A DNA stretch of 64,000 nucleotides from Eubacteriales bacterium (GCA_045540755.1 JAZQHV010000073.1:2434-66433); one strand, 5' to 3'. Positions 33,848-60,753 are shown, counted from the stretch's first letter. Translations and numbers: made by a program. The notes: generated by a model from the sequence alone, not told the origin.

Positions 33848-33876
33848 ATTATAACAGAAACGAATTCGCATTTAAA
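33848..33876 (-). promoter_or_regulatory. candidate promoter of the TIM-barrel...uxuAB operon
   Basis: Minus strand: TTTAAA, 17 nt, TGtTATAAT. About 20 nt upstream of ATG 33827. Confidence 0.45.
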
Positions 33877-33898
33877 TTGTATTTCAAAGCATTTTATA

Positions 33899-33927
33899 TT
33901 GCAAAAACATGCATAAACCGCTATAAT
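33899..33927 (+). promoter_or_regulatory. near-consensus promoter placed for a leaderless AraC mRNA
   Basis: TTGCAA (33899-33904), exactly 17 nt, TATAAT (33922-33927). The ATG at 33934 is 7 nt after the -10, with no SD in between. Confidence 0.55.
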
Positions 33928-33933
33928 ACAAGT

Positions 33934-35685: not shown

Positions 35686-35760
35686 TCCCCCTTTCTTCTC
35701 CAAATATATGCGCTACCATGCTTTCCATGCAAAAAAACAGCGGAAAATTTGCAAATCACC

Positions 35761-40128: not shown

Positions 40129-40156
40129 GGAACTTCCTCCAATACCAATTTTCTTT

Positions 40157-40185
40157 ATTCTACCATATTAAGGGATATATGGCAA
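40157..40185 (-). promoter_or_regulatory. promoter of P1
   Basis: Minus strand: TTGCCA, 17 nt, TGgTAGAAT. Confidence 0.5.
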
Positions 40186-40200
40186 TACCGAAACATTTTG

Positions 40201-40256
40201 CAAAAAACAGATCCTCCGCTTTTACCAAAAAGGAAAAAGCGGAGGATCTGTTTTTG
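40201..40256 (-). terminator. intrinsic terminator of P2 (16-bp stem)
   Basis: ACAGATCCTCCGCTTT...AAAGCGGAGGATCTGT, with a T-run on the minus strand (complement of caaaaaa at 40201-40207). Confidence 0.8.
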
Positions 40257-40265
40257 TAATGATTT

Positions 40266-44402: not shown

Positions 44403-44434
44403 GCCGTGCCGTCCTTTGTCAGAATTTAAGTTCT

Positions 44435-44463
44435 ATTTTACAGCGATATAGAAATCTTTACAA
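44435..44463 (-). promoter_or_regulatory. candidate promoter of P2
   Basis: Minus strand: TTGTAA, 17 nt, TAAAAT. Confidence 0.4.
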
Positions 44464-44490
44464 TGTAGAAAACGGATCTTTTGTAAAAAT

Positions 44491-44523
44491 AAGAACAAAA
44501 GAGTGGCATTTCTGCCACTCTTT
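44491..44523 (-). terminator. intrinsic terminator of P3
   Basis: AAAGAGTGGCA-loop-TGCCACTCTTT, followed on the minus strand by TTTTGTTCTT. Confidence 0.75.
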
Positions 44524-44527
44524 GTCT

Positions 44528-47500
44528 TTATCCTTTTGCTCTTTCGCCCTGCAATGCAATGCGGGTAAAGATTACGCAAGCCTCACTTCTCTTGATAGAG
44601 TCGTTCGGGCGGTAATTGCCCGTGCCCGCGTCGCCGCCGACGATGCCCGCGTTGTACAGCTTTGCAACTGCCTTGTAGCAGGACATATCCTCGGTAACGT
44701 CGGGATTCGAGCCGCGGCGGACTGCCGTGTACTCGCTTTCGGGAAGTACGTTTGCAAAGACGATCGCCATATCACCTCTGGTGATGTTGGCATCGAGGTT
44801 TGCAAACTGACCTGCGGTGATGATACCGTTCTGTACGCAGTATTCTACGTAAGGATCGTACCACTTTTCTCCTGCGGCCGCCGCGCGGACTTCCTTTGCA
44901 TTGTAGATCTTGTGGATGTTGGTCGCCGCGGTCAGTGCCTGTGCAACCGTAAAGGTATTGTCCGGCGAGAACTTGGTGTTCGAGGTGCCGTTGGCAAGGC
45001 CGATGCGGTATGCCTTTTCCACAAAGGAGAAGAACCAGTGTGCATTCGTAACGTCGGTGAATCTGCCGTCGTACTCTCTCGTAAAGGCAAAGGTCTCCTT
45101 TGCCGCGTCCGTCTTGTCAAAGCCGACGATACGCTTTGCGATGGGCAACGGATTTGCCTTTGCGGTGTACACGGTGGAGACGGGAGCGGGATGACCCGAA
45201 CGGTTACCGATGACTACGCCCTCTTCGGTGAAGTAGTACGGCTCCACGTATGCACGGCGGTTGTTGTCGCCCTTGGGATATGCATGGTAGCAGATCCAAC
45301 CCTGACCGTCAGTGTCGGTGACGTAGGATGCGTGTCCGCAACCCGTCAGCTCTGCCGACTGCGAGAAGATGGAGGTCGGCTTCTTCGACCAGCTTGCGGG
45401 ATCGGTGGGATCGCCGTTCGGACCGCCGATATAGGTCAGCTGACCGAGCTGGTACTTCGCCGTCCAGTAACCGGAGCCGGAGTAGATGATGTAGACCTCA
45501 CCGTTCGGACCGTATACGGCGGTAGAGCCCTCAACGACCTGCGGGTGGATGCCGTCCTCACTGCCGCCCTTTTCCCAATCGTACTCGGGCTTGCAGATGA
45601 CGGTAGGCTGACCCTCAATAGTCCAGGGGTTGGTGAACTTTGCAATGTTGATGGTCTGGTAGAAGTTCATATCCGCGGTGCCGCTGGTCTCTCTGCCCAC
45701 CTCGCTGATGAAGGTGATATACTTGACACCGTTGATGGTGATGACCGAGCAACCGCCCGTCAGCTCGTTGACGTTGAAGTCGCTGTCGGGGAACTGGATC
45801 TTCTGGGGAACGTTCGGCTCACCCGTGATGGGGTGACCCCAGGGTCCCTGCAGATCGTCGGTGAGGCACTTGATGACGTGTGCACGCTGCTCGCCAAAGC
45901 CTGCGGGATCGTCCACAGCGCCGTTGGCCTCATGCCAAGCATCATCGGGCTGGCTGCCGAGGAAGCAGTACCAACCTGCATACTCCGCGCCGATCTCCTC
46001 AGCCGAGAAGTAATGGATCTCGGGCGACCAGAGATGCGCCGACCATTCGTGTCCTTTTTCGGGCTTGTAGATCTGCTTGCTCTCTGCCTTCAGCAGATCG
46101 GAAAGGTTGGGCGCCTTTGCAAGCTGCAGGCCCTTGCCTGCCGCGGTTGCAATGTAGTAGTAATAGCCGTCGTGGAAGAAGAGCCACGGGTCTGCGCCGT
46201 TGGGGCTCTCACGCACAAGGCTGGTGAAGCTGGTGGTGCCGACTACGTCCGCGTTGATGTCCACGTTTTCGCCGACCGAGAGCGTGGAGGTGATCTCGCC
46301 CTTCAGCCCCTCGGTGCCCACAAACTCAGTGGTATGCACGGGGTTCTGGTCGCGGATGATCACGTTGTAGGTACCGTTGAAGGAACCGAATTCAGTGCTG
46401 GTGGGGCGAACTCTGCCGTAAATATCTCCGTCGTTGACCTCAATGGTCATGTTACCGGTAAAGGAGTACTCGTCCTTGCTCATTGCCGCGCCGGTGATGC
46501 CGGCAACAAAGGTACCGCCGTTGACAACGAGCGTAAGGTCGCCCGTGTGCGTAGAAGCGGTGCTGAGCGTAACGGTCTCTGCAAAATAACCGTCGTTGAT
46601 GGTCATATGCACGTTGGCGTTCACGGGAATACCCGTGGAGTTGCCGAGACGGACTCTCTGCCAGTTACCGCCGTTGACGACGATCTCACAGGCAACGTCC
46701 TGTACCGCCTCATAGGTACCGCCGACAAGGCTGGGGTAATGCAGAACGGTGCCTGCATAGTCGGTCACAACGTCTGCACCGACAAACAGATCGTTATAGG
46801 CTGCAAGGATGCCGCCGTAGGACTTCTTGTTGGTGATACGCAGCCCGTCGATCACGGTGTCGCCGCCGAGATAGATGTTCTGCGTGATGATGAGGGCGGC
46901 ATCCGCGCTCTTGCGGTAGTCCACGCCGTCATATACGGAGGTAATGGTGATCTCGCCTGCGTGCTTCGGTACGATAAAGCCGGAACCGGTAGACGAGAAT
47001 ACAGGGGTTACGTAGGGGCCAACCAAAACGATGGTACCGTTGTTGTCGCCGATAGCTGCAAACGCATCCGCAAGGCTGTTGCCTGCCGCATTTGCCGAGG
47101 TACCGTTGCCGTTACCCGCATCGCTGAGGAAGTACACAACGTCGGTTCTCGCCTTGAAGATAGAGGCGGCCGCGCCGAGGGAATCTACCGTGAACTTTGC
47201 GGTGTCGAGCTGAAGCTCGCCCGTTACGTTCGTGCCCTCTACGGCATATTCCTTGACCTCACCGCCGTAGAGCAGATAGGAAAGCTCCTTTGTAACGTTA
47301 TTAAAGGTGATCTTATCGACCGTACCGCCGCTGACTGCAAGCTTTGCGGTCGCGATGGAGGAGTCGGTGGTCTTGACCGCGCCGACCTTACCGCTGAGGA
47401 TCTCCAGGGTAAATGCATCGGTGCCGCCCGTGACCGAGCCGACCTCTGCGCCGTTGATCAGCACGTAGCCCGCATCGGTAACGGTGCCGATCTTACCGGC

Positions 47501-48922
47501 ATACAGCTCTGCAGAGCCGATGACGTTGTAGGTAAAGTATGCGCCGACCGAGGCGTCGATCACCGCGGTGCCGTTTTTGGCATTGAGTGTACCCTTGCCG
47601 CTAAGGCGCATGTCGCGGAACTCGGTCTTGCCGCCGAAGGTGTAGGTACCGTCGATCTCCAGCGTTGCCGTGGAGGAAGCGCCCTCGATCACGATGGTAT
47701 TGTCGTGTGCAGGCTCAGTAAACTCGGTGAGTTTCTGCGTGCCGATCAGCACGATCACGCTCTCCGCCTCGCTTGCGATCTTGACAGCGTTCTCAAAGGA
47801 GGTGGGATCGTCCTCGCTTGCACCGGTGCCGCTTGCACCCGACTTTGCATAGACCTTGGAGATGTTTTCCACGTTGTCAAATGCCGCGCCGAAGGCAGCG
47901 ATCTCTTCCTTGGTGTAATACTGTGCGTTATAGTACAGCGTATCGGGCTTGTTTGCCTTGCGCGCATTGGTGGTCTGCTCGGCATTGGCATAGGTCATGT
48001 CCACAGAGCCGACCTTAGCGCCGTCCAGCGTCAGCGTAGCCGTGCCGATGACGTTGTTCATGTGCACGTCGCCGACGGTACCGCCGCTGAGGGTGACCGT
48101 TCCGTCGCTTTCGAGACGGCGGGTAGCATCGCCTGCCGCGTAGAGCACACCAACCTCACCGCCCGTGATGTTGATGACTGCACTGGTAGAGATCTGGTTT
48201 GCATACGAGCCACCGAACATCTTGGCGACCTTGCCGCCGCTCATTTCGATGTGGTTGGTGCCAAAGTACGTGGTACCCGAGGCGCCCGTACCCTTCTGGC
48301 GCGAGCCGCCGATAACGTATTCGAAATCGCCGCCGCGAATGGTGATGTGCGAATCCTTGGTGGTATCGAAATCGTCCAGAGGGCTCTGCCAGCCGCCGAC
48401 GATGTAAAGCACGTTTGCATCCGCATCAAGGCGCTTGAACCGAATGCCCTCGCCAAAGGTGATGTGGTTGTACTGTGCGACGAAGACAACAGACTTTGTG
48501 TACTCAAAGGTCATGTTGTCAAAGGTGGTGTCGCCGTAGAGATAATAGCGCAGACCCGAGCCGTAGACGATCTTTGCGCCCACGGTCTCCGCATAGTCGG
48601 TCGTCTCATCCTTGGTGGTGAGGACAAACTCTACGTCGGGATGCTCGATCTCCTTGACCGTCTTGGGGATAGAATAAGCGTTGGTAAAGACAAGGTATGC
48701 CTTATCATAACCTGCATTCGCACCCAAACGGCATGCCTGCGTAAAGGTTCTGACTGCATTCTCGGGCGATTCGCCGTCACTGCGGTCATTACCGGTCTCA
48801 GAGTTGACGTAGAGATAAATTGCGTCCTCTGCCGACACGGTCAGCACCGTCAGCGCCGTCAAAAGCGCCAGGGTGAAGAGGATCACCGCAAAAAAGCGGA
48901 GATTCTTGTTGGTTTTTTGCAT
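44528..48922 (-). CDS. P3: secreted protein with three beta-helix-like modules, a GH43-like core and 3x SLH domains (1464 aa)
   Basis: GAGGGA RBS. Signal peptide ...LTALTVLTVSAE. ITITSVYDGVDY. GH43 motifs NGADPWLFF, LWSPEIHYF, QVVEGSTAVY, TGCGHASYV. SLH repeats at the C-terminus. Confidence 0.75.
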   Translation of the reverse strand: MQKTNKNLRFFAVILFTLALLTALTVLTVSAEDAIYLYVNSETGNDRSDGESPENAVRTFTQACRLGANAGYDKAYLVFTNAYSIPKTVKEIEHPDVEFVLTTKDETTDYAETVGAKIVYGSGLRYYLYGDTTFDNMTFEYTKSVVFVAQYNHITFGEGIRFKRLDADANVLYIVGGWQSPLDDFDTTKDSHITIRGGDFEYVIGGSRQKGTGASGTTYFGTNHIEMSGGKVAKMFGGSYANQISTSAVINITGGEVGVLYAAGDATRRLESDGTVTLSGGTVGDVHMNNVIGTATLTLDGAKVGSVDMTYANAEQTTNARKANKPDTLYYNAQYYTKEEIAAFGAAFDNVENISKVYAKSGASGTGASEDDPTSFENAVKIASEAESVIVLIGTQKLTEFTEPAHDNTIVIEGASSTATLEIDGTYTFGGKTEFRDMRLSGKGTLNAKNGTAVIDASVGAYFTYNVIGSAELYAGKIGTVTDAGYVLINGAEVGSVTGGTDAFTLEILSGKVGAVKTTDSSIATAKLAVSGGTVDKITFNNVTKELSYLLYGGEVKEYAVEGTNVTGELQLDTAKFTVDSLGAAASIFKARTDVVYFLSDAGNGNGTSANAAGNSLADAFAAIGDNNGTIVLVGPYVTPVFSSTGSGFIVPKHAGEITITSVYDGVDYRKSADAALIITQNIYLGGDTVIDGLRITNKKSYGGILAAYNDLFVGADVVTDYAGTVLHYPSLVGGTYEAVQDVACEIVVNGGNWQRVRLGNSTGIPVNANVHMTINDGYFAETVTLSTASTHTGDLTLVVNGGTFVAGITGAAMSKDEYSFTGNMTIEVNDGDIYGRVRPTSTEFGSFNGTYNVIIRDQNPVHTTEFVGTEGLKGEITSTLSVGENVDINADVVGTTSFTSLVRESPNGADPWLFFHDGYYYYIATAAGKGLQLAKAPNLSDLLKAESKQIYKPEKGHEWSAHLWSPEIHYFSAEEIGAEYAGWYCFLGSQPDDAWHEANGAVDDPAGFGEQRAHVIKCLTDDLQGPWGHPITGEPNVPQKIQFPDSDFNVNELTGGCSVITINGVKYITFISEVGRETSGTADMNFYQTINIAKFTNPWTIEGQPTVICKPEYDWEKGGSEDGIHPQVVEGSTAVYGPNGEVYIIYSGSGYWTAKYQLGQLTYIGGPNGDPTDPASWSKKPTSIFSQSAELTGCGHASYVTDTDGQGWICYHAYPKGDNNRRAYVEPYYFTEEGVVIGNRSGHPAPVSTVYTAKANPLPIAKRIVGFDKTDAAKETFAFTREYDGRFTDVTNAHWFFSFVEKAYRIGLANGTSNTKFSPDNTFTVAQALTAATNIHKIYNAKEVRAAAAGEKWYDPYVEYCVQNGIITAGQFANLDANITRGDMAIVFANVLPESEYTAVRRGSNPDVTEDMSCYKAVAKLYNAGIVGGDAGTGNYRPNDSIKRSEACVIFTRIALQGERAKG
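44531..45061 (-). other. three SLH (S-layer homology) repeats (C-terminus of P3)
   Basis: FTDVTNAHWFFSFVEKAYRIGLANGTSNTKFSPDNTFTVAQAL; ...WYDPYVEYCVQNGIITAG...ITRGDMAIVF; NPDVTEDMSCYKAVAKLYNAGIVGGDAGTGNYRPNDSIKRSEACVIF. Confidence 0.65.
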
Positions 48923-48960
48923 AAAAGTCCCTCTCTTCTCAAAAAATTTGTTTACAATTC

Positions 48961-48989
48961 ATTATAACACACGCTTGCCGCATGTGCAA
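48961..48989 (-). promoter_or_regulatory. near-consensus promoter of P3
   Basis: Minus strand: TTGCAC, 17 nt, TGtTATAAT. About 35 nt upstream of ATG 48922. Confidence 0.6.
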
Positions 48990-49094
48990 CGAAAAAAATC
49001 CTTTCCTTCTTGTAAAATCTTTGTGTTGCCGTGCAAAAACAGATTTTCTTCAGTTGCACTTTTTGCACTTTACGATATTTTTGCAGATTATGAT

Positions 49095-49123
49095 ACAAAA
49101 AAGACCGCCGAAGCGGTCTTTTT
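49095..49123 (-). terminator. intrinsic terminator of P4
   Basis: AAAAAAGACCGC-cgaa-GCGGTCTTTTT. A T-run follows on the minus strand. Confidence 0.8.
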
Positions 49124-49124
49124 G

Positions 49125-52100
49125 TTATTTTGTAAGCGTAGCCGTACTGGTCGCACCGTCCCATGCAACTTCGGCGCCGAGGTTTTCGGCAACGAAACGC
49201 ACGGGGAGATAGGTGCGACTCTTTTCGATAAACGCGGGAGAATCCAGTTTGACCTCGGCGCCGTTGACCTTTGCCGTCGCCTTGCCGATAACGATCTCAA
49301 TAGAGGTTGTTTCGGTCTTGACGGTGACAGTGCTCGTAGTGCCATCCCAGCCGACCGTAGCCCCAAGGCTCTCGGCAACAAAGCGTACGGGAAGCATGGT
49401 ACGGGAATTGCGGATCACGGGCGCGGCATCCAGTCCGCGCGGCGCATCGTTGACATAGCCTGTGAGGTCGCCGATGGTAAGACGCACCACCGCCCTGCCT
49501 GCCGCAACCGTTTTTTCGCTGTCAAAGCCACGGATGCGCTTTGCAAGCGGAAGCGGATTGTACGCCGCTTTCTGCAACGCATTAAGCGGTGCGGGATGTC
49601 CGCTACCGTCTGCAACAACGATGCCGTTTTTGTCAGCCGTATACGGCTCTGCAAACGCAAAGCGTCCGCTGCTGGTATCTTTTCCGATATAGGCATGGTA
49701 ACATACCCATCTCTGCCCCGCCGTGTCGGTCACGTAAGAGGCGTGTCCGCAACCGTTGATCTCTGCCGATTTGTAAAGGAAGGGCTCTTTTGCCTTTTCC
49801 CACGAGGTGATCTCCAAAGGATCGCCGCCGATATATTTCAGAGTCGCAAGGCAGTATTCGGTCGTCCAGTAGCCACTGCCCGAGTAAACGATATAGACAG
49901 TGCCGTCGTCGGCATAGACTGCGGTTGCGCCCTCCACGACCTCGGGAGCACTGCCCGTTCCGCCACCCTTTTCCCACGCATACTCGGGATAGCAGATGAC
50001 CTTGGACTCGCCGACGATCGTCCACGGATTGGTCATTTCCACGATGTTGATGGTCTGGTAGAACTTTTCACCCTCGGTGTATCTGCCGCGCTCGGTGACG
50101 TAGAGCATATAGAGTTTGCCGTTTACGCGCACCTCGCTCATGCCTGCCGCCCACGTATCCGCAAAATCGGGGATCGCCTCTGCCGTTACCACCGCAGGCA
50201 CGTTCACCTCACCCGTGACGGGATGTCCCCATCTGCCAAGGAGATCGTCCCCGTCAAGACACTTGGCAACGTACATACGGTGATAAATATTCTCGCCGTT
50301 GTCGCACGCCATAAACAGATACCAGCCGCCGTTCCCCTTGCCGATCTCTTCATCCGTGTAATAGTGGATCTCGGGCGACCAGAGACTGCGCGACCACATG
50401 TGTCCGTCCTCGGGATCGTAGACAGTCTTATACTCGGCGTACTTAAGGTCACCGATGTTTGCCGCGCGGGCGAGACCGATCGTGCTACCCGTGGTCGCGG
50501 TGTAATAATAGTAGTCGTCACAATAGAACAACCACGGATCCGCGCCATTCGAGCGAATGGGATTGGTAAAAGAATAGCTGCCCGTGATCTCGGCATCGAG
50601 GTCGATATTCTCCGCCACGGCAAGCGTGGAGGTCATCGTGCCGAGCCCGTCCGCACCCACGATCTCGGTGAGATGCGCAAGGTTGCCGCCGAGAATGTTC
50701 AACGTATAGCTGCCGCTGTAAGTACCTACCGCAGAATTTGCCACCTTGATGTACCTGTGGACCGTGCCGCCCGTAACCGTAAACGTAACGTTACTGTTCA
50801 AGGCATGCGTATGATTCGAAAGCGTGGAGGCAAGGATGCCTGCACGGAACTCGCCACCGTGGATCTCTGCGGTGATGTCGCCGTCATGGGAAAGCGAACT
50901 GCCAAGCGTGACCGTCTCCATAAACGTACCGCCGTAGATCCGCAGATTTACCTTGGTATTTTTACTGCCGTCCGCCGCCGTGCCGCCGCGCACTCTCTGC
51001 CACGTGCCGCTGTGGATGGCGAGGTCGGTCGTCTTGTCCGTAAGTGCCTGCTGATTGCCGCCCATGACCGAAAGATAGGTCTCACTGACGGTGTCTGCGA
51101 TCGAGGTGATATTCTCTCCGAGCACCAGCGGATGTGCATTTGCATAGATGGAAACGTATTTTCCACCCGCGCGAAGCGTGATATCGCAAAACTCGGTCTC
51201 GCCGCCGCAGTAGAAGTTCTTGGCAAGCACCAGCTCCGCGCCGTTCGTCACGCGGTAATCCACGCTTTCGTAGACGCTGGTAATGGTAATCTTCTTCTGA
51301 TTCACGCCCATGTTAAACGCAGTGGCAACCGTGTACTTTCCGCATATAACGATCTTGCCGCCGCTCTGTGCAAGCGCGGCGTAGGCATCCACAAGCGAAG
51401 AGGAGGGCGAGCTTGCGCTCATACCGCTGCCTTTCGCACCGTCGGCAAGGAAGAATACCCGTTCACCGCCTCTGCCGAAGAGGTCTGCCGCTTCGCCGAG
51501 GCTTTCCGCGGTGAAATACCGTTCGTCGAGCGTGAGCGTTCCCTTTACGGTTTCGCCCGCGATCTCAAACGCGCCGATCGAACCGCCGACAAGCGTGCAG
51601 GAAAGCGCCTCGGTGATATTGCGGAAAACGACCTTCTCCACACTGCCGCCGCCGACGGTCAGGGCAAAGCGTTTTGCCGCCGCGGAATCCACCGTGCCTA
51701 CTTTGCCGCCGTGGATCTCAACGGTCGCATCCGTGCCACCGTCAATGCTACCGACCGTCGCGCCCGAAACCAGAACGTGCTTTGCCGCGATGATCTCGTC
51801 ATACGTACCCGTGTACAGATGTGCACTGCCCGAGACACGGACGTTCAGCGGTGTTGCCGTTTTTTCTACGATGAGACAGCCGTCTTTCGCATCGAAAGCG
51901 CCACTGACCGTTACGTTTTGGAAAGCAGTCTCGCCCGAAAGCGTGTAGGTGCCGCCGATCTCCAGCGTTGCGCCGCTATCCATACCGGTCACGGTAATGC
52001 AGTTTGCATGCACAGGCTCGGTAACGTCCTGTACCCGCACTCTGCCGATGAGGGTGATGACCGCATCCTTCTCCGCCGCCATCTGCAAAGCGGTTGCAAA

Positions 52101-53183
52101 CGAGGTGGGGGTATTCTCGCTTCTGCCGTCGCCGTCGGCACCGGCTTTGACGTAGATCACGGCGTTGTTCTGCACGGAATCAAAGCCGTTGATCGCCGCA
52201 ATTTCCGCTACGGTATAATACAGTGCATCATAGGTGAGCGATTTTACCGACTTTGCCTTGACGTGCAGTTCGTCCACCTCGCTGTTATAGTAGGAAACGT
52301 CTACGGTGCCGACCTTGGTGCCGAGCAGCTGCACGTCGGCATTGCCAATGACGTTGTTGACGTGCAATGCCCCGATCTCACCGCCTGTAAGGGTGACCGT
52401 TGCCGTACCGTTCAGACGGCGGGAAAGGTCGCCGCCAACGTGGAAATTCTTCACCTTGCCGCCCGTCATGGTAAGAACGGCGTTTCGGCTCCAGTTATGC
52501 TGCACGGAAGCGCCGTAAAGATTCTCGATCTCGCCGCCCGCAACCGTGATATAATGCGTGCCTTGCAGTTCAAGACCGCTTCCCTCCGCCGCCTTTTGAC
52601 GAGAACCGCCGATGACGTTGAGGAACGAGCCGCTTTGGATGGTGATGTGCGAGTCAAGCTCGGTCGCCTTGCCGTCCTCGGGGCTCTGCCAGCCGCCGAC
52701 CACGTACAGACCGCTCACGGTGTTATCGAGGCGCACGGTATTGACACCGCCACCGAAAGTAATGCGGTTATACTGCGCCACGCAGTTGAGCGTGCCGCTG
52801 TACTCGACCGTGATATTCTCAAAAGCGGTATCGCCTAAAAGTACGTACCGCAGATTTTTTCCAAAAGTGACTTTTGCACCGCTTGCGCCGTAATCGGTCA
52901 CATCGTCCTTTGTCGTAACCACAAACGGAACCGTATGCGGGATCTCGTTTACGGTCGCGGGAAACGAATACGCATTCGTGATGACGATATACGCCTTGTC
53001 CGCGCCCGATTCCTCCGCCAGACGGCACGCCTGCGTAAAGGTCTTGACCGCCGCCACCGCCGACAAACCGTTTGCGCCGTCATCACCGTTTTCGGAATTA
53101 ACGTAAATATACGCATGTTCAGCCGCAAATGCCGTGAGTGTCAGCATGGTGAGTACCAGTAAAAAAACAAATACTTTTTTCAT
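49125..53183 (-). CDS. P4: secreted protein with three beta-helix-like modules, a GH43-like core and 2x Cu-amine-oxidase-N1 (stalk) repeats (1352 aa)
   Basis: Start MKKVFVFLLVL at 53183 (GAGGTG RBS), signal peptide ...TLTAFAAE. ITITSVYESVDY. GH43 motifs NGADPWLFY, LWSPEIHYY, EVVEGATAVY, NGCGHASYV. Confidence 0.75.
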   Translation of the reverse strand: MKKVFVFLLVLTMLTLTAFAAEHAYIYVNSENGDDGANGLSAVAAVKTFTQACRLAEESGADKAYIVITNAYSFPATVNEIPHTVPFVVTTKDDVTDYGASGAKVTFGKNLRYVLLGDTAFENITVEYSGTLNCVAQYNRITFGGGVNTVRLDNTVSGLYVVGGWQSPEDGKATELDSHITIQSGSFLNVIGGSRQKAAEGSGLELQGTHYITVAGGEIENLYGASVQHNWSRNAVLTMTGGKVKNFHVGGDLSRRLNGTATVTLTGGEIGALHVNNVIGNADVQLLGTKVGTVDVSYYNSEVDELHVKAKSVKSLTYDALYYTVAEIAAINGFDSVQNNAVIYVKAGADGDGRSENTPTSFATALQMAAEKDAVITLIGRVRVQDVTEPVHANCITVTGMDSGATLEIGGTYTLSGETAFQNVTVSGAFDAKDGCLIVEKTATPLNVRVSGSAHLYTGTYDEIIAAKHVLVSGATVGSIDGGTDATVEIHGGKVGTVDSAAAKRFALTVGGGSVEKVVFRNITEALSCTLVGGSIGAFEIAGETVKGTLTLDERYFTAESLGEAADLFGRGGERVFFLADGAKGSGMSASSPSSSLVDAYAALAQSGGKIVICGKYTVATAFNMGVNQKKITITSVYESVDYRVTNGAELVLAKNFYCGGETEFCDITLRAGGKYVSIYANAHPLVLGENITSIADTVSETYLSVMGGNQQALTDKTTDLAIHSGTWQRVRGGTAADGSKNTKVNLRIYGGTFMETVTLGSSLSHDGDITAEIHGGEFRAGILASTLSNHTHALNSNVTFTVTGGTVHRYIKVANSAVGTYSGSYTLNILGGNLAHLTEIVGADGLGTMTSTLAVAENIDLDAEITGSYSFTNPIRSNGADPWLFYCDDYYYYTATTGSTIGLARAANIGDLKYAEYKTVYDPEDGHMWSRSLWSPEIHYYTDEEIGKGNGGWYLFMACDNGENIYHRMYVAKCLDGDDLLGRWGHPVTGEVNVPAVVTAEAIPDFADTWAAGMSEVRVNGKLYMLYVTERGRYTEGEKFYQTINIVEMTNPWTIVGESKVICYPEYAWEKGGGTGSAPEVVEGATAVYADDGTVYIVYSGSGYWTTEYCLATLKYIGGDPLEITSWEKAKEPFLYKSAEINGCGHASYVTDTAGQRWVCYHAYIGKDTSSGRFAFAEPYTADKNGIVVADGSGHPAPLNALQKAAYNPLPLAKRIRGFDSEKTVAAGRAVVRLTIGDLTGYVNDAPRGLDAAPVIRNSRTMLPVRFVAESLGATVGWDGTTSTVTVKTETTSIEIVIGKATAKVNGAEVKLDSPAFIEKSRTYLPVRFVAENLGAEVAWDGATSTATLTK
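49128..49493 (-). other. two Cu_amine_oxidN1-like stalk repeats (C-terminus of P4)
   Basis: ...LDAAPVIRNSRTMLPVRFVAESLGATVGWDGTTSTVTV... and ...LDSPAFIEKSRTYLPVRFVAENLGAEVAWDGATSTATLTK. Confidence 0.65.
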
Positions 53184-53213
53184 AGTGCACCTCATTTGGG
53201 GGTAGATATATGT

Positions 53214-53901: not shown

Positions 53902-54720
53902 TCACAGCTTGATCTTACCGACCTGCATACGCTTGCGGTACTCCCCCGGAGAGCATTTGACCTCCCTTTTAAAGGTGTCGGAAAAATAATATATGCTCGA
54001 GAAGCCCGTATCCTCCGCGATCTTGGTCAGCGTATCGTTGGTCTCGCGCAAAAGCGCCTTCGCAAGGCGGATCCGCTCCTGACGGATATACTGTGCAGGC
54101 GCGACCGTATACATCTGCCGGAAGGAATACCGAAAATGCGACTCACTCATTTTAAAGGTCTCGGCAAGCATCGGCACGTTCAGCGTGCTGTCCGAGAGCC
54201 TTGCGTCTATATACTCTCTCGCCTTTTCCATGCGCGCTTTTTTTTGCGCAGGCAAATAAACGGAATGCTTCGCCTTCAGAAAATCGGAATAGATCGTATA
54301 GAGCATAGAAAGACAGTCCGGTTGCATCGTAGATGGTTGCATATGCCAGGTCGTTACGATCTTGCGGAGCAGATGCTCGTCCTTTTTTCCGCCGAGCGGC
54401 GTCACCGCCTCGCACCGCAAAGCAGTACCTTCGGGCAGATCAAAAAGAAAATTCGCATAAACGATCCCGTATTTTTCACAAGGTACGATCAGATCATACG
54501 TGCATCCCTTTGCAAGATACAAAAGATCCCCCGCCTTTACCTCCACGGTGTAATCACTGAAGCGGTAGGTTGCTTTTCCAAACACCACGTACAAAAACGC
54601 ATCGCTCGGACGTCCGCCGACGTTCTGGTCTTTGTGTTCCCCTCCCGGTATGTCCCAGCCGATCCCGTGCAGGAATTTTTGAATATTCGGCATAAGCTCG
54701 CCAAGCCGTTGCAATTCCAT
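53902..54720 (-). CDS. AraC family transcriptional regulator, divergent from the M20-P5 operon
   Basis: GAGGGGTG RBS. Cupin-like N-terminal half. HTH ...LTKIAEDTGFSSIYYFSDTFKREVKCSPGEYR. Confidence 0.85.
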   Translation of the reverse strand: MELQRLGELMPNIQKFLHGIGWDIPGGEHKDQNVGGRPSDAFLYVVFGKATYRFSDYTVEVKAGDLLYLAKGCTYDLIVPCEKYGIVYANFLFDLPEGTALRCEAVTPLGGKKDEHLLRKIVTTWHMQPSTMQPDCLSMLYTIYSDFLKAKHSVYLPAQKKARMEKAREYIDARLSDSTLNVPMLAETFKMSESHFRYSFRQMYTVAPAQYIRQERIRLAKALLRETNDTLTKIAEDTGFSSIYYFSDTFKREVKCSPGEYRKRMQVGKIKL

Positions 54721-54818: not shown

Positions 54819-54847
54819 TTTACAGAACGGGTATATTTGTGTAATAT
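54819..54847 (+). promoter_or_regulatory. candidate promoter of the M20-P5 operon
   Basis: TTTACA (54819-54824), 17 nt, TAATAT (54842-54847). Confidence 0.4.
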
Positions 54848-54874: not shown

Positions 54875-56215
54875 ATGTACGAAACACTTTTTAAAACGAT
54901 CGATGCCTGCAAAGACGAGATCCTTGCAGCTGAGCGGCATCTTTGGAACAACCCCGAGGCAGGCTTTCGCGAGTGGAAAACACACGCATTTATGAAAACG
55001 AAGTTTGAAAGCTACGGATACACCGTACACGAGGCAGGAGACATCCCCGGCTTTTATGCAGACGCAGATACAGGCAAGGAAGGACCTTGGATCGGCATAT
55101 TCGCCGAAATGGACGCCTTGCTGATCCCCGAGCATCCCGAATGCGACAAGGAAACGGGTGCAGTACACGCCTGCGCTCATCATTGTCAGTGTGCCGCCAT
55201 CCTCGGTCTTGCCAAAGCGCTGAAAGCAAAAGGCGCTATGGACGGGCTTGTCGGCGGTGTACGCCTGTTTGTCGTCCCTGCCGAGGAAGGGATCGAACTT
55301 GGCTACCGCATCGACCTCGTCAAAAAAGGCATCCTCCATTTCATCGGCGGCAAGCAGGAATTCATGCACCGCGGATTTTTAAACGGCATCGACATCGGCA
55401 TGATGATCCACGGTGGTAGCCACCCCTTTTCCATCGAGGTCGGCGGCAACGGGTATATCTGCAAGAAGTACACCTTTATCGGCAAGGCAAGCCACGGCGC
55501 GGCGCCGTCGCTTGGCATCAACGCGCTGTATGCGGCGACCAACGCACTTTCCGCCGCCAATGCGATCCGCGAACGCTTCAGCGGCGACAGCAAGTTCCGC
55601 TTTCATCCCATTATTACCAACGGCGGCGAGGCGACCAACGTGATCCCTGCCGAGGTAACCGTGGAAAGCTTTGTGCGCGGCGGTAGCATCGGACAGATCA
55701 CCCGCGCAAACGATGCCATCAATCAGGCATTTGCAGGCAGTGCCGCCGCAATGGGCTGTCGCCTTGTCATCGAGGATATGCTCGGCGCCATGCCGCGGCG
55801 CGAGGATGACAATCTGCGAAATGCTTTTGTGGACGTAGCCAAAACGCTGTTTGAAGAGGAGGAGATCTATCCGCATCGCCCGTGGAATGCAGGCTGTACC
55901 GACATGGGAGATATTTCCTCGGTGATGCCCTCCATCATCGCATACGTCGGCACCAGCAGCATCCCCTGCCATACGAAGCGTTTTGTCGTGGAGGATGCGT
56001 ATACCTCCTGCGTAAAAGGAGCAAAGGTGCAGGCGGGCTTTGTATACAGACTTTTGTCCGACAATGCTGCCCTTGCCAAAAAAGCGATCGCCGAGGACAA
56101 GCCGCCGTTTGCCTCCATAGAGGAGTATTTGTCTGCGGCAAAAAAACTCATCCGATTTGGAGATTCGGTCTTCTATAACGAGGACGGCACGATTACCATA
56201 AAAGCAAAGGAGTAA
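54875..56215 (+). CDS. M20-family amidohydrolase/peptidase (AbgB/M20D-like), cytoplasmic
   Basis: GAAGGAGGGAG RBS. ...LWNNPEAGFREWKTH..., metal-site ...HACAHH... and ...VVPAEEG. No signal peptide. Confidence 0.75.
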   Translation: MYETLFKTIDACKDEILAAERHLWNNPEAGFREWKTHAFMKTKFESYGYTVHEAGDIPGFYADADTGKEGPWIGIFAEMDALLIPEHPECDKETGAVHACAHHCQCAAILGLAKALKAKGAMDGLVGGVRLFVVPAEEGIELGYRIDLVKKGILHFIGGKQEFMHRGFLNGIDIGMMIHGGSHPFSIEVGGNGYICKKYTFIGKASHGAAPSLGINALYAATNALSAANAIRERFSGDSKFRFHPIITNGGEATNVIPAEVTVESFVRGGSIGQITRANDAINQAFAGSAAAMGCRLVIEDMLGAMPRREDDNLRNAFVDVAKTLFEEEEIYPHRPWNAGCTDMGDISSVMPSIIAYVGTSSIPCHTKRFVVEDAYTSCVKGAKVQAGFVYRLLSDNAALAKKAIAEDKPPFASIEEYLSAAKKLIRFGDSVFYNEDGTITIKAKE

Positions 56216-56218
56216 AAG

Positions 56219-59200
56219 ATGAAAAAAATAGTTTTTTCTCTTGTATTTTTCTGTATCGCAATGCTTTGCCTGCTACCGACGTTTGCGGCGGATACCGTCG
56301 TCTTTGTCACTGACGGCGGCACAGGAGACGGAACCGCCGCTACTGCACCGCTCGGAACGCTCGCCGATGCATACGCCGTCATCGGCAGTGGAAACGGTAC
56401 GATCGTTATCTGCGGCAAATATACGGTGGGCAATACGTCCACAGTCTCTCTGCCCGCGCATGACGGCACCGTTACCTTCACCTCCGTATACGGCGGAGTG
56501 GACTACACGGCAACAAACATGGCAGAACTGTATTTCAACGGCACTTCGTTCCTGAAACTGAACGGTGCGACCGTGTTTGACAATATCAAAATGACGCTGA
56601 AGGGCTCTGCCGCGGGTATCTGCTGTAATTTCAATCCCGTGACCCTTGGCGAGGGTGTTATCATCGACACGGCGACGTATAAAATGTATCTGGTCGTCGG
56701 TCCGAACGGCGATAGCGCAGGCACGCTGACCGCCGACGAGGTATTGGAGATCAACGTCTTCGGCGGAAAGTTCATCAACGTCACGGCATTCAGCCGCTCC
56801 GTAGCGGCGACAAACTCCGGCACAGTCATCCTGAATATCGGCGGCAATGCCGATATCCGCGACCTTTGCCCCGGTTCCCTGTCCGCAGGCTCCTATGCAG
56901 GAGCGACCTCGGTAAACCTCGGTGAAAGCGCCAAGGTGACCACCCTCTATCTTGGCGGATACAATTCCAAGGGCATGAAAGGGGACGTGGTACTGAACGT
57001 TGCCGACAATGCCGCGATCTCCGCGATCAAAAACTACGGTGACACTTATTTCCCCGAAAGTGAACGCTATCTCAACGTTTATTCGGAGAGCGTTTCTCTC
57101 CCCGATGCATACGCAGATTGCTTTGACCAGGTGACCACGCACGCGGACAATGCAGACGTGGTGTTTGTCTGCGAGGGAAAGAACGGAAACGGAAGCAATC
57201 CCCTCTCCCCCGCAGGCAGTCTGACAGAAGCCTTCGGTCTTGTCGGAAGCGGCGGAAAGATCGTTCTGACCGGCACCGCAAACTTTCCGAACAAGACCAT
57301 GTTGCAATTGCCCACCTGCACAGGCGAAGTCACGCTGACCTCCGTGCACGGCGGCAACGACTACCGCAAGCTTTGCAATGCCGCTTTCGGCTTTACAGGC
57401 ACAAGCTTTGTGTGCTTTAACGGCGACATCGTTCTCGACGATATCACGGCGAAGATCGGCAGCTCTACCGTCGGTTTCTGCTTCAATTTCCACAATGCTT
57501 ATATCGGCAGAGGCTTTGAGATCGACGAGCCGAGCGGATATCATCTGTTTGTCCTCGGCGGCACGAACAGTGATACGGCTCTGCCCGCTCTCGCCAAAGA
57601 CAAGGCGATAAGCATCACTATCTTAAGCGGCAGATATCACACGCTTTCGGGATATACCCGCCGCGTTACAAACGTTTCGCACGAGGGAACGGTCACCGTG
57701 AACCTCGGCGGCGATGCGGAGGTAAACGCATACAGCGTAGGTCCCATCAGCACGGGTGCACGCGGCGGTGAAAGCATCGTCAATCTGTCCGATGCCGCCA
57801 CCGTAAACACCATGTACCTCGGCGGCTACCAAAGCGGCGCCATGAACGGCAATGTCACGCTAAATATCGGCGACACCGCCACGGTCAAGAGTATTCTCAA
57901 CTATAACAGCACCTACTTTGCAAGCACAAAAAAGAACCTGAACATCCAAAGCGCAGAAGCGTCGCTTCCCGAAAACTACACCGACATCTTTGATAACATA
58001 ACGACCGTTCTGCAAGCCTACACGGTCACGCTTCCCCTCCCCGAGGATGCTCCGGACATTTCTCTTGCACAGTTGCTTGTCAACGGCGAGACCGCCGTTT
58101 CGTCGGTATCCGGAAGCGCGGTGACCTTTGAAAGCATCGAAAAGCAAGCGACGCTTTCCCTGACGTATAAGGATTCCGTCTACCGCAGGATCGTTTTCGA
58201 CGTGGATGCTACGTCGGGTACCACTGTGGCAACGCTTGCAAGCGACACGACCTATGACGGCTCGGTCATTTACGTTGCAGACGGGGCAAGCGGCGACGGT
58301 CTGACCGCGGATTCTCCCGTAGCAACGCTGACAAGCGCGCACAAGGCGATGCTGACCGCAGGTGGCACCGTGGTGCTTTGCGGCGAGGTGACCGTTCCTG
58401 CCAAGATCACTCTCCCGAGTCACGAAGAAACGGTCACGTACACAAGCGTGTACGGTAGTAGCGATTACCGCGAGCACGCGCGTCTGTTCTTCCCGAACGG
58501 CATGACCGTACTGCTCGGCGGTGACAGCGTATTCACCGATATCAACATACATACGACCACCTATGCATTCATTACCGCAGGTTTCCACACACTGACCTTT
58601 GACACGGGCGTTGTGACCACTGCCGGTCCCGAAGCTGAGGGGCTGAAAAAGAGCGAGGGCGCAAACGGACTCTACCTTGCAGGCGGCTACAACGGCGCAT
58701 CGATCGGCGAGGTCGAAGTGGCTTCGGATGCAAACATCACCCTGCGTAGCGGCTTTTTCCGCAGAGTGTACGGCTTCTCCCGTCTTTCGGGCAAAACGAC
58801 CTACACGGGTACGGCAACCGTCCTCTTAGAAGGCGATGCAGAGGTCGACGAGCTGATCGTGGGCGCAACGGGTAATTCCGCAACCGCAACGAACGCACAC
58901 GTGACAGTCAAGGACAATGCCATCATCTGGAATCTCTTTGCCTGCGGCCGCGAGACCGACAACTATCTGACAGGACAGTTTGACCTTGTGGTATATGGCG
59001 GCGATATCTATGAGATCGATGCCCTGCGCTTCTACGCCACCAAGTGTCCGATGACCTTTACCTACGACGTTCGCACCGTGCCGAGCGGATATCCCTACCT
59101 TGCAGAAATGGCACAGTTTGACGTGATCCAAACCTTCTGTGAGCGGGACAACACGCACAGCTTCTCCGAGCCGTATGCCAGCGAATTTGATGCAAGCATC

Positions 59201-60709
59201 CTGCTCTCGGTCTGCTCGGTCTGCGGTGAGCTCAAGGTGATCGGAGACGTTCCCGAGAGCACCGATAAAAACGTTGTATTTGTTGCAGAAGGCGGATATG
59301 GAGACGGAAGGCATCCCTCCGTCCCCACAAGCGATCTCTACGCCGCTTTTGCAAAGCTTTCAAGCGGTGGCACGATCGTCATTATGAACAGTTACACGCT
59401 CAGCGCCAACACTACACAAAAAGTAGGCAGTGCCCCGTCCTTTTTCCAAGAACCGATGCATGAAGGCACCGTTACCGTTACCTCCGTATACGGAGGCATC
59501 GACTACCGCAAGCAGGGCGCAAAGCTGACCTTCAACGGAAATATCGACTATAAGCTTTCAGGCCCCATAACATTTGAAAGCATCGTTTTTGATGCCACGG
59601 AAAAAGCGACCGAAAACAATATTGCCGCACGCTACAATGCGCTGAAATTCGGCAAAGACGTGACCATGCTCCGCACCAAGGCGGACGGCTACAGCCTCAA
59701 CCTTGTCGGCGGCTACCTGTATTTCCGTTACACGGATTTTGCAGACGTTGTCATCGAGGAAAACACCATCGACATGGTCAGCGCGGCACGCCCGCTGACG
59801 ATCAACGAGGAAACAGGCGATTACACCATCGACGATCCCGAAAATATCGTGACCTACGGCGAAACCAGCAATTTTGTACTGCACGCCGAGGCAGCAAGAG
59901 CGTTTAACAGAATGTTCGCGGATATGTCGGCGGCGGGACTGAAGGAGCCGACGCGCCTTAGCTTTGCCTGGCGAGGATATCTGCCGCAGTATGACGGGTA
60001 TACCAAAAACATCGGCATCGGCAGACTGGATTACGGCTACACCTTTGAGCAGGCACACAGATCCGTTATACGCCATTGCGCAACGCCCGGTACCAGCGAG
60101 CACCATATCGGTTACGCCATGGATTTCCACGATGAGGCGCTCGGCGACGATGCACACAAGAAGTACGATCAGACCGCAGAATGGGCATGGATCCTGCAAA
60201 ACGGATACAAATACGGCATCATTCTGCGCTATCCGTCAAACGATACCGCAACCACGGGCTTTTCGTATGAGGCGTGGCACTTCCGCTACGTGGGCATAGA
60301 GCACGCGACCGCCATTGCAAAGCTGAATGCAGGCGGCGATCCCGAAGGAAATGCAGAAATGCTTCTGACTCCCACGTGGTGTCTGGAGGAATACGTCGGC
60401 AAGATACTCGGCATGTACGACAAGGATGCCTATATTGAGATCGTCAGCGGCGATTTTGACGAGGTCACGGTCGGCTCCGTAGGTTGCGACTCTCTGCCGT
60501 TTACAGGAGAGGGCAACGTGCTTTACGGCGAAGCGCCGAGCGGAGATGCAAACGGTGACGAAAGGATCTCTTTGACCGACGTGATACGCATTCTCCGATA
60601 CAGCACGGACAGTGCGGTGACGATCTCCGCGGAAGCGGACATGAACCGCGACGGAAAGATCGACCTTTCGGATGCTTTACTGCTGATCCGCAAGATCCTG
60701 AATTCCTAA
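56219..60709 (+). CDS. P5: secreted protein with four beta-helix-like modules, a VanY/M15B D-Ala-D-Ala carboxypeptidase domain and a canonical two-loop dockerin (1496 aa)
   Basis: AAGGAG RBS inside the M20 3' end; 3-nt intergenic gap. Signal peptide ...LLPTFAAD. Module caps at about aa 25, 312, 682 and 1017, each followed by VT[FLYV]TSV[YH]GGxDY. Confidence 0.8.
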   Translation: MKKIVFSLVFFCIAMLCLLPTFAADTVVFVTDGGTGDGTAATAPLGTLADAYAVIGSGNGTIVICGKYTVGNTSTVSLPAHDGTVTFTSVYGGVDYTATNMAELYFNGTSFLKLNGATVFDNIKMTLKGSAAGICCNFNPVTLGEGVIIDTATYKMYLVVGPNGDSAGTLTADEVLEINVFGGKFINVTAFSRSVAATNSGTVILNIGGNADIRDLCPGSLSAGSYAGATSVNLGESAKVTTLYLGGYNSKGMKGDVVLNVADNAAISAIKNYGDTYFPESERYLNVYSESVSLPDAYADCFDQVTTHADNADVVFVCEGKNGNGSNPLSPAGSLTEAFGLVGSGGKIVLTGTANFPNKTMLQLPTCTGEVTLTSVHGGNDYRKLCNAAFGFTGTSFVCFNGDIVLDDITAKIGSSTVGFCFNFHNAYIGRGFEIDEPSGYHLFVLGGTNSDTALPALAKDKAISITILSGRYHTLSGYTRRVTNVSHEGTVTVNLGGDAEVNAYSVGPISTGARGGESIVNLSDAATVNTMYLGGYQSGAMNGNVTLNIGDTATVKSILNYNSTYFASTKKNLNIQSAEASLPENYTDIFDNITTVLQAYTVTLPLPEDAPDISLAQLLVNGETAVSSVSGSAVTFESIEKQATLSLTYKDSVYRRIVFDVDATSGTTVATLASDTTYDGSVIYVADGASGDGLTADSPVATLTSAHKAMLTAGGTVVLCGEVTVPAKITLPSHEETVTYTSVYGSSDYREHARLFFPNGMTVLLGGDSVFTDINIHTTTYAFITAGFHTLTFDTGVVTTAGPEAEGLKKSEGANGLYLAGGYNGASIGEVEVASDANITLRSGFFRRVYGFSRLSGKTTYTGTATVLLEGDAEVDELIVGATGNSATATNAHVTVKDNAIIWNLFACGRETDNYLTGQFDLVVYGGDIYEIDALRFYATKCPMTFTYDVRTVPSGYPYLAEMAQFDVIQTFCERDNTHSFSEPYASEFDASILLSVCSVCGELKVIGDVPESTDKNVVFVAEGGYGDGRHPSVPTSDLYAAFAKLSSGGTIVIMNSYTLSANTTQKVGSAPSFFQEPMHEGTVTVTSVYGGIDYRKQGAKLTFNGNIDYKLSGPITFESIVFDATEKATENNIAARYNALKFGKDVTMLRTKADGYSLNLVGGYLYFRYTDFADVVIEENTIDMVSAARPLTINEETGDYTIDDPENIVTYGETSNFVLHAEAARAFNRMFADMSAAGLKEPTRLSFAWRGYLPQYDGYTKNIGIGRLDYGYTFEQAHRSVIRHCATPGTSEHHIGYAMDFHDEALGDDAHKKYDQTAEWAWILQNGYKYGIILRYPSNDTATTGFSYEAWHFRYVGIEHATAIAKLNAGGDPEGNAEMLLTPTWCLEEYVGKILGMYDKDAYIEIVSGDFDEVTVGSVGCDSLPFTGEGNVLYGEAPSGDANGDERISLTDVIRILRYSTDSAVTISAEADMNRDGKIDLSDALLLIRKILNS
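59861..60313 (+). other. VanY / peptidase M15B domain of P5
   Basis: ATPGTSEHHIGYAMDF (SxHxxGxAxD zinc/active-site motif) and SYEAWHFRYVG (ExxH). Upstream ...AARAFNRMFADMSAAGL...WRGY. Confidence 0.75.
60536..60706 (+). other. canonical two-repeat dockerin of P5
   Basis: GDANGDERISLTDVIRILRY ... ADMNRDGKIDLSDALLLIRKIL: two Ca-binding loops, each followed by a helix. Confidence 0.7.
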
Positions 60710-60753
60710 AAAACTCCCCTGCAATGGGATTCCCATTGCAGGGGAGTTTTGTT
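60710..60753. terminator. bidirectional intrinsic terminator (16-bp stem)
   Basis: AAAA-CTCCCCTGCAATGGGA-t-TCCCATTGCAGGGGAG-TTTTGTTT between convergent genes. Confidence 0.85.

Follow-up and report, generated by a model that had tools for sequence, protein, structure and literature searches.

A dockerin-bearing protein with an M15B carboxypeptidase-type domain predicted to be nested in a surface module, and its recurring M20D neighbour, in an uncultured Clostridia bacterium

We analysed a 64-kb stretch of Eubacteriales DNA (GCA_045540755.1, JAZQHV010000073.1:2434-66433; hereafter the window, meaning all 64,000 nucleotides (nt)), with emphasis on P5, a ~160-kDa protein that carries a VanY-type peptidase domain and a dockerin, and on the M20-type amidohydrolase gene directly upstream of it (M20). 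P5 is from an uncultured Oscillospirales-type Clostridia bacterium, and P0240, encoded on a 79.8-kb NCBI contig, has the identical sequence; the formate-tetrahydrofolate ligase encoded in the window is 93% identical to proteins of Clostridia metagenome-assembled genomes (MAGs) and 86-88% identical to those of Acutalibacteraceae, Ruminococcaceae and Oscillospiraceae MAGs. Cohesin-dockerin systems are common in this clade. Open reading frame (ORF) calling recovered P5, M20 and a divergent AraC-family gene at exactly the positions given in an earlier sequence-based annotation of the locus, referred to here as the original prediction (Table 1).

Table 1 Features of the P5 locus, with the GH43 (glycoside hydrolase family 43) genes of the window and the regulators found in distant relatives. 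aa, amino acids; HMM, hidden Markov model; RBS, ribosome-binding site; HTH, helix-turn-helix.
Feature	Position (nt)	Strand	Basis or remark
AraC-family regulator	53902..54720	-	HTH_18 76.2 bits, HTH_AraC 53.7 bits (Pfam); divergent from the M20-P5 pair
Sigma-70-like promoter candidate, TTTACA-17-TAATAT	54819..54847	+	Consensus match only; upstream of M20
M20D amidohydrolase (M20), 446 aa, no signal peptide, predicted cytoplasmic	54875..56215	+	TIGR01891 and Pfam
Coupling junction	56207..56221	+	AAGGAG RBS, TAA stop, 3-nt spacer, P5 ATG
P5, 1496 aa	56219..60709	+	ORF calling
P5 Sec-type signal peptide, aa 1-23	56219..56287	+	Sequence inspection; cleavage after TFA
Module 1, aa 24-311, beta-solenoid/beta-helix-like, predicted non-catalytic	56288..57151	+	Module HMM 271 bits
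Module 2, aa 309-599	57143..58015	+	39% identical to module 1, E 1e-65; HMM 236 bits
Inter-module linker domain, aa 600-678	58016..58252	+	No Pfam match, no significant module-HMM match
Module 3, aa 679-975	58253..59143	+	Module HMM 241 bits
Short Cys/His linker, aa 976-1014	59144..59260	+	Sequence; C-x5-H...C-x2-C
Module 4, N-terminal part (cap and first rungs), aa 1015 to ~1187	59261..59779	+	Module HMM 173 bits, positions ~7-150
M15B (VanY/LdcB-type) zinc carboxypeptidase domain, aa ~1188-1385	59780..60373	+	Pfam, NCBIfam, fold match
Module 4 resumed (two rungs after the VanY insert), aa 1395-1432	60401..60514	+	hhalign of tail profile
Type I dockerin, aa 1442-1494	60542..60700	+	Dockerin_1 (PF00404) 38.6 bits, cut-off 22.9
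Terminator-like hairpin and T-run	60730..60745	+	After P5; consensus match only
Four GH43 paralogues, module(s) N-terminal to the catalytic domain, alternative C-terminal anchors	37540..53195	-	Pfam, BLAST
LacI-like regulator, locus L097	1..861		Divergent from the family gene
LacI-like regulator, locus L098	8677..9843		Divergent from the family gene
LacI-like regulator, locus L100	4554..5729		Divergent from the family gene
LacI-like regulator, locus L101	6668..7816		Divergent from the family gene
LacI-like regulator, locus L102	4039..5169		Divergent from the family gene

The junction between M20 and P5 is compact. The TAA stop codon of M20 (56213-56215) is followed by AAG and then by the ATG of P5 at 56219, and the P5 ribosome-binding site (56207-56212) coincides with the last two sense codons of M20; the M20 ATG at 54875 is itself preceded by AGGAGG. 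A site scan found neither a terminator-like nor a promoter-like site between the two genes. The shared strand, minimal spacer, RBS and lack of an intervening terminator or promoter are those of a two-gene operon; the junction appears operon-like, and we infer co-transcription. The 3-nt spacing, the position of the RBS inside the 3' end of M20 and the divergent orientation of the AraC gene, all reported in the original prediction, are visible in the sequence. Promoter-like sites around the pair showed no enrichment over shuffled sequences. The AraC-family protein consists of a C-terminal HTH_18 domain and a weak cupin-like N-terminal domain (Cupin_2, ExsA_N weak, E 0.004).

The catalytic domain of P5 was examined by profile, sequence and fold comparison. 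Pfam VanY (PF02557) matches residues 1220-1359 at 88.2 bits (cut-off 25; E 5e-25), covering profile positions 3-131 of 132. The key residues R1252, H1295, D1302, E1351 and H1354 are all present, the histidines and acidic residues within the motifs SEHHIGYAMD (residues 1293-1302, nt 60095-60124) and EAWH (residues 1351-1354, nt 60269-60280). By sequence, the closest proteins of solved structure are Bacillus subtilis LdcB (4ox3, 1.4e-18) and VanYB (5hnm, 6e-18), followed by Bacillus anthracis LdcB, VanXYc and pneumococcal LdcB. A fold search with the VanY core returned 25 PDB chains at E<=0.001, all of them M15B and including VanYB, LdcB and VanXYc, with VanYB (5hnm) as the best match (TM-score 0.81, E 2e-11). 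Scores against the NCBIfam models were below every cut-off (vanY_BG, 66.3 against 400; vanXY, 60.9 against 250; vanY_AFMPt, 60.5 against 425; LdcB NF041194, 52.9 against 275 bits). We therefore assign the domain, on profile and fold evidence, to M15B without placing it in any named subfamily; it may work like LdcB while standing outside the LdcB equivalog. The HMM and structure comparison with VanY, VanXY and LdcB thus bears out the M15B assignment and the intact metal and catalytic motifs proposed originally. The narrower label of VanY-type D,D-carboxypeptidase is too specific, since LdcB 4ox3 stands level with VanYB and the NCBIfam cut-offs are not reached.

Across 15 family sequences (alignment A3), the zinc and catalytic H, D, E and H residues are invariant, as are the S, H, G, A and D of SxHxxGxAxD and the E, W and H of ExWH. 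In P0094, P0095 and P0100, Gln replaces the conserved Arg of A-x-R-(S/G)-Y..Q and an Arg/Trp-rich insertion lies close by; these members form a subclade in which catalysis or specificity may have changed. Two near-identical strain variants have 1/49 and 4/95 of their substitutions in the VanY region, where 13% would be expected (p 0.008 and p 0.003, respectively), and a third such variant shows no depletion. An endolysin-like lytic peptidase, for which we took the Ply500 type to be the relevant 'VanY' endolysin, was also considered and was rejected: no such family was returned by PDB or PHROGs, and the sole PHROGs match was a tape-measure protein. No van-type neighbours were seen among the scanned ORFs, vanH, vanA, vanX and vanRS not having been specifically searched across the window.

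P5 contains four related modules of ~290 residues that start near residues 25, 313, 683 and 1017 (BLAST of P5 segments) and are pairwise 28-39% identical (E 1e-65 to 4e-14). The fourth is interrupted. The piece preceding the VanY domain ends at position 147-171 of the module HMM in 13 relatives and at 199 in P0092, and the ~40 residues after the VanY domain match HMM positions ~155-215 (155-226 across the tails of relatives), a split pattern found in P5 and in every relative. Matches of the individual tails to the module HMM range from weak in P5 (i-Evalue 0.68) to 7.5e-11 in P0103; in an hhalign comparison, a profile of 15 family tails matched the module profile at 95.1% probability (E 3.3e-8), aligning with residues 154-189 of module 1. 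The break point corresponds to the lowest-confidence, length-variable loop in the AlphaFold2 (AF2) model of module 1 (residues ~141-155). We therefore interpret the fourth copy as an incomplete module that the M15B domain divides in two; in the profile alignments, the VanY domain is an insert nested in a loop of this module. Four module copies had been predicted: four related modules are indeed found, but the last is split and truncated around VanY. Two cysteines, C1388 in the helix that follows the VanY core (WCLEEY, 60380-60382) and C1423 in a resumed rung (GSVGCD, 60485-60487), occur together in 9/10 family sequences that have the first, and could form a disulfide that fastens the insert to the beta-helix.

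The C-terminal dockerin has two calcium-binding loops, DANGDERISLTD (1443-1454) and DMNRDGKIDLSD (1474-1485), with the canonical D1/N3/D5/D12 pattern; its helices appear at residues 448-458 and 479-491 of the AF2 model of the C-terminal region, at low predicted local distance difference test (pLDDT) scores. The Pfam match above cut-off and the presence of both loops uphold the canonical two-loop dockerin of the original prediction. The domain order does not agree with the geometry that was proposed with it, in which the enzyme was held ~1200 residues from the cell on a stalk. The dockerin begins ~55 residues after the VanY region and ~10 residues after the resumed rungs, whereas the modules lie towards the N-terminus; the enzyme is therefore anchor-proximal and the array of 3.5 modules distal, the reverse of the picture proposed. 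The same order of modules, catalytic domain and anchor (SLH, Cu_amine_oxidN1 or a degenerate dockerin) is shared by the GH43 paralogues of the window, and more generally the module-bearing paralogues carry SLH, Cu_amine_oxidN1 or transmembrane anchors.

The nature of the module was addressed separately. P5 begins with a signal peptide, read from the sequence as MKKIVFSLVFFCIAMLCLLPTFA followed by AD, and its first 1200 residues have no Pfam match. The modules match all four GH43 proteins of the window (E down to 4e-23), so that BLAST confirms the previously noted sharing of the module between P5 and these paralogues. A word-indexed search with module 1 found 16 relatives, mostly proteins of 400-500 aa with a typical layout of signal peptide, one module and then either a C-terminal transmembrane anchor or Cu_amine_oxidN1 repeats; all stand-alone homologs likewise begin with a signal peptide. 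The AF2 model of module 1 is confident (pLDDT 91, predicted TM-score 0.90), all-beta and periodic. Foldseek found no significant neighbour of this model (best PDB match E 0.4, TM-score 0.34; best BFVD match E 0.015, TM-score 0.42), with TM-scores <=0.51 overall and <=0.42 for the best-E matches, and parallel beta-helix proteins made up nearly all of the top nonsignificant matches (YbhC, pectate lyases, pectin methylesterase, TPS domains, tailspikes and DUF1565). Thirty module copies matched no beta-helix family, or any other family, in Pfam even at E<=1. The N-terminal cap motif, VVFV-DGG-GDG-s--P-g-L--A---l--GGTIVl-G-y, resembles the start of DUF1565/Beta_helix proteins.

In an alignment of 30 module sequences, only Gly, Ala and Thr columns are invariant or near-invariant, which argues for a scaffold or binding module rather than an enzyme; a catalytic role as a lyase or hydrolase was considered and is unlikely, since no polar residue is conserved across the 30 copies. 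The module is apparently a beta-solenoid or beta-helix-like surface module without a Pfam description. The beta-helix label given to it originally is consistent with the confident all-beta model and with the type of the top matches, none of which is significant. The module, modelled as all-beta and periodic, may resemble right-handed parallel beta-helix proteins (the pectate lyase superfamily, DUF1565 proteins and phage tailspikes), and differs from the known beta-helix families in having neither a Pfam match nor conserved acidic or basic catalytic residues. The Cys/His linker preceding module 4 (FCERDNTHSF...CSVCGE) is possibly a small metal-binding mini-domain of surface proteins; the stand-alone homologs P0076 and P0089 have a similar motif (CIDHTFGDW...CAVCG) after their module.

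Proteins of this build form a conserved family, of which P5 is a member. With residues 1005-1496 as the query, an exhaustive HMMER search yielded 14 representative clusters (P0091-P0104) of 728-2306 aa. All of them align colinearly with P5 from module 4 through VanY to the tail, and they are 40-50% identical to it except for the near-identical P0091 (~97%). A C-terminal dockerin is present in 9/14 clusters, one member also having a GDSL esterase. Members have between one and five N-terminal modules, and in some of them a further module separates the tail from the dockerin. One further protein, P0007, has an unrelated layout with the dockerin N-terminal to VanY, which suggests that the dockerin-VanY fusion arose more than once. 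At locus L100, a shorter VanY paralogue of 714 aa (10485-12629) lies directly downstream of a 1508-aa dockerin-bearing member, a tandem duplication of one copy with and one without a dockerin. A scan of representative-genome contigs with the C-terminal 492 residues of P5 found unrelated dockerins only, and a scan of metagenome contigs with the family alignment, the patterns of which fell within generic VanY motifs, gave 80 loci, all with ordinary VanY proteins (26-48% identity) and none with a family member.

M20 scores above the cut-off of TIGR01891 (182.6 against 153.75 bits) and matches Pfam Peptidase_M20 and M20_dimer; its best relative of solved structure is HmrA (3ram, E 6e-21, 78 bits). 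It thus resembles HmrA and the M20D enzymes YxeP, ILL2 and PM20D2, a kinship to be read at the family level only. In addition, it has a C-terminal extension of ~75 aa.

The M20 link is real: it is seen in three lineages, with the two genes in either order and, in one case, with M20 reduced to a decayed remnant. At L095, the locus of P0091, M20 lies upstream of the VanY gene with a divergent AraC gene, in a layout like that of the window. At L097 (P0093, 46% identical to P5), the gene order is reversed, and an M20 ortholog with 60% identity is found 1 nt downstream of the family gene. At L098 and L099 (P0094), a 62-aa remnant of the M20 C-terminus follows 2 nt downstream (ORF 14488-14676 in L098, also present in L099); it is 38% identical to the C-terminal ~75 residues of M20D (E 6e-8), the part of M20 that forms its extension. 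The pairing of M20 with P5 put forward in the original prediction is therefore seen at these loci but is absent at four distant ones, L100, L101, L102 and L001. At L096, a contig end hides the upstream side.

The divergent regulator differs between relatives. The AraC arrangement was found elsewhere only at the near-identical L095. At L097, L098/L099, L100 and L101, the divergent gene encodes a Peripla_BP_3 domain with a helix-turn-helix (HTH), and L102 has a divergent homolog of the same regulator with no Pfam match; this ~380-aa protein, 39-47% identical among L097, L098, L100, L101 and L102, is LacI-like in its Peripla_BP_3 domain and has a weak HTH. Its HTH is C-terminal rather than N-terminal, an unusual layout. 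L001 has a divergent SipL-like gene (faint Pfam match), and no homolog of the LacI-like regulator was found in the window. Judged from these sequences, the conserved theme is a divergent regulator of small-molecule type and not AraC itself. The small-molecule sensor of the original prediction recurs in this sense, but its AraC identity does not, as five distant loci have the Peripla_BP_3-HTH type.

Dockerin-VanY proteins have been noted before. Rincon et al. (2010) listed a single 'VanY protease' of Ruminococcus flavefaciens FD-1, the dockerin of which falls in group 6b (PMC2930009), Bensoussan et al. reported two dockerin-bearing D-alanyl-D-alanine carboxypeptidases from a bovine rumen metagenome and suggested attack or defence (PMC6487960), and Vermassen et al. 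(2019) coined the term 'lyticome' (PMC6403190). Neither the dockerin-VanY fusion nor the idea of attack is therefore new; both were already known at the level of annotation. In the literature searched, we found no paper joining a dockerin with LdcB, nor any account of the nested architecture, of the family as such, of its M20 link or of its regulator. The nested build, the recurring M20 link and the LacI-like regulator of the distant relatives appear to be new.

Comparison with the known systems shows what P5 shares with each. With the R. flavefaciens FD-1 and rumen dockerin proteins, known from annotation only, it has in common the M15B/VanY-dockerin combination and a Ruminococcaceae-type gut or rumen anaerobe as its source. 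Those reports concern two modules only and include no biochemistry, whereas the P5 enzyme is apparently nested behind three further module copies and its family is defined over at least 14 clusters, with a recurrent M20D partner and a conserved regulator. P5 shares with LdcB/DacB (B. subtilis YodJ 4ox3, B. anthracis 4mph and Streptococcus pneumoniae 4ox5) the M15B fold, the H-x6-D...E-x2-H signature, the upstream Arg and a predicted extracytoplasmic location. In contrast to these proteins of ~180-270 aa with lipoprotein or transmembrane anchors, it has 1496 residues and is probably dockerin-tethered and nested. The fold and catalytic motifs are likewise those of VanY and VanXY (VanYB 5hnm, VanXYc 4mur), but P5 is predicted to be neither membrane-anchored nor cytoplasmic and is flanked by AraC, M20D and an ATP-binding cassette (ABC) transporter with its binding protein.

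Elsewhere, the window has many genes for carbohydrate-active enzymes, with AraC regulators set over them. The four GH43 paralogues carry one to three modules and differ mainly in their C-terminal anchor, which is a one-loop degenerate dockerin (37540-40128), Cu_amine_oxidN1 (40266-44402 and 49125-53195) or SLH (44528-48922); the set resembles anchor swapping on one scaffold. Three long ORFs on the + strand (44522-48967, 48873-52838 and 40836-44429; 1197-1481 aa) were dismissed as shadow ORFs antisense to the GH43 genes, with no family matches. GH78 alpha-L-rhamnosidase genes (6522-10823 and 11912-16015) and a GH106 gene (16037-19141) adjoin AraC regulators (10907-11830 and 19237-20097), and a third AraC gene (33637-34764) has a glucuronyl-esterase-like gene (31197-32261) and UxuA (28955-30052) in its vicinity; in this region, genes for secreted enzymes are as a rule accompanied by AraC regulators. 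An M14 zinc carboxypeptidase (34780-35703, - strand) has a weak likeness (27 bits, cut-off 157) to MpaA, a murein tripeptide amidase. Convergent to P5 (60770-63918, - strand) are genes for an SBP_bac_1 lipoprotein of 506 aa and for an ABC transporter of the polar-amino-acid type, with the ATPase at 62381-63121 and the permease at 63118-63918. A Liv-type amino-acid ABC transporter is found at the equivalent relative position in L096 (5516-9058), possibly by coincidence.

The role that we consider most likely, with about even confidence, is an inducible, surface-docked trimming or salvage of peptidoglycan peptides by P5, with M20D finishing the imported product. According to this model, the dockerin would bind a cohesin on a scaffoldin or a wall-anchored protein, placing the carboxypeptidase at the anchor point with the module array directed outward, where it might bind glycan or wall polymer or serve as a spacer. 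P5 would remove the C-terminal D-Ala from exposed stem peptides (tetra- to tripeptide or penta- to tetrapeptide), a trimming and non-lytic reaction. Its substrate at the cell surface would be wall material that has been shed or comes from the environment, or else the outer layers of the wall of the producing cell itself. P5 and M20D would be co-transcribed under a divergent regulator of small-molecule type (AraC here, LacI-like in relatives), and M20D would complete the hydrolysis of the imported product. Salvage is preferred because P5 falls in the non-lytic carboxypeptidase branch, because its partner is a predicted cytoplasmic amidohydrolase and because sugar-sensor-type regulators are typical of catabolic units.

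Several points weigh against this model. The choice of salvage over remodelling of the producer's own wall is drawn from regulatory and operon context, and the carboxypeptidase activity of P5 and the substrate of M20D are predicted at most. Sequence and fold resemble those of LdcB and VanY equally and do not separate L,D from D,D specificity. The split topology comes from profile alignments only; an AF2 model of residues 1005-1496 (mean pLDDT 63) is confident only in the VanY core (pLDDT 85-97). M20 is dispensable, since it is missing from the four distant loci named above. No cohesin was found among the scanned ORFs of the 64-kb window, and non-cellulosomal dockerins exist.

The serious rival is maturation of the producer's own wall, which we think is unlikely but would not set aside: an LdcB/DacB-like enzyme, kept close to the producer's own peptidoglycan by a cohesin on a wall-anchored protein, would trim stem peptides there and so control cross-linking or supply other wall enzymes with the acceptor or donor forms. 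LdcB is the top sequence match, the enzyme adjoins the anchor in the domain order, and domains that bind the wall (SH3, choline-binding repeats, PG_binding and Cu_amine_oxidN1) are found in many M15B proteins, all of which would fit such a role. The housekeeping LdcB enzymes, however, are small and anchored as lipoproteins or in the membrane, the large distal module array would have no obvious role, and a sugar-sensor-type regulator with a recurrent cytoplasmic amidohydrolase better fits an inducible catabolic unit. Less likely, and in our judgement improbable, is a substrate other than peptidoglycan (another D-amino-acid-terminated or acyl-amino-acid compound, encountered as plant or microbial polymers are broken down) or a mainly binding role, the adjacency of M20 being incidental. 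The absence of M20 at four loci, the CAZyme (carbohydrate-active enzyme)-rich surroundings under AraC regulators (four GH43, two GH78 and one GH106), the modules common to P5 and the GH43 proteins, the GDSL esterase of one family member and the Arg-to-Gln change in three point in that direction; the fold, the metal ligands and the catalytic residues are nevertheless those of peptidoglycan carboxypeptidases, every close relative that has been characterised has wall stem peptides as its substrate, and M20 adjoins the family gene in both orders with spacers of 1-3 nt.

Interbacterial antagonism, with a docked 'lyticome' component attacking the walls of neighbours and modules binding foreign surfaces, seems to us the least probable role. 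It has been proposed for rumen dockerin-bearing D-Ala-D-Ala carboxypeptidases and lysozymes (PMC6487960, PMC6403190), and distal modules could act as adhesins. P5 belongs, however, to the carboxypeptidase branch (LdcB, VanY and VanXY), in which removal of the terminal D-Ala leaves cross-links uncut, and the domain has no match to endolysin-type PHROGs families. A docked protein of ~160 kDa would be unlikely to reach nascent pentapeptides at the membrane of a target cell, and neither a lytic partner nor an immunity gene is seen in the operon. The antagonism hypothesis of the original prediction is thus mechanistically weak for a carboxypeptidase-type domain that is not endolysin-like, besides having been published already. 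As for peptidoglycan salvage, the P5 family might form the extracellular part of an unrecognised inducible pathway of peptidoglycan 'necromass' foraging in gut and rumen Clostridia, in which the distal modules of the cohesin-docked protein capture foreign wall fragments, the M15B domain nested at its base trims their stem peptides, the co-inherited cytoplasmic M20D completes hydrolysis after import and a sugar- or muropeptide-sensing regulator controls expression; this we regard as doubtful.

Among the dockerin-bearing enzymes of rumen and gut 'cellulosome-like' systems, those with substrates other than carbohydrates form a recognised fraction that has yet to be characterised. The P5 locus supplies a defined, conserved family of them, with a construct boundary (the split module with the predicted nested M15B domain), a candidate M20D partner and candidate regulators. 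The ~290-aa module is a general and undescribed surface module of these bacteria, and the picture of an enzyme on a long stalk is corrected even if the salvage model is wrong. If that model is true, cohesin-dockerin display would be tied to bacterial wall turnover, beyond plant fibre.

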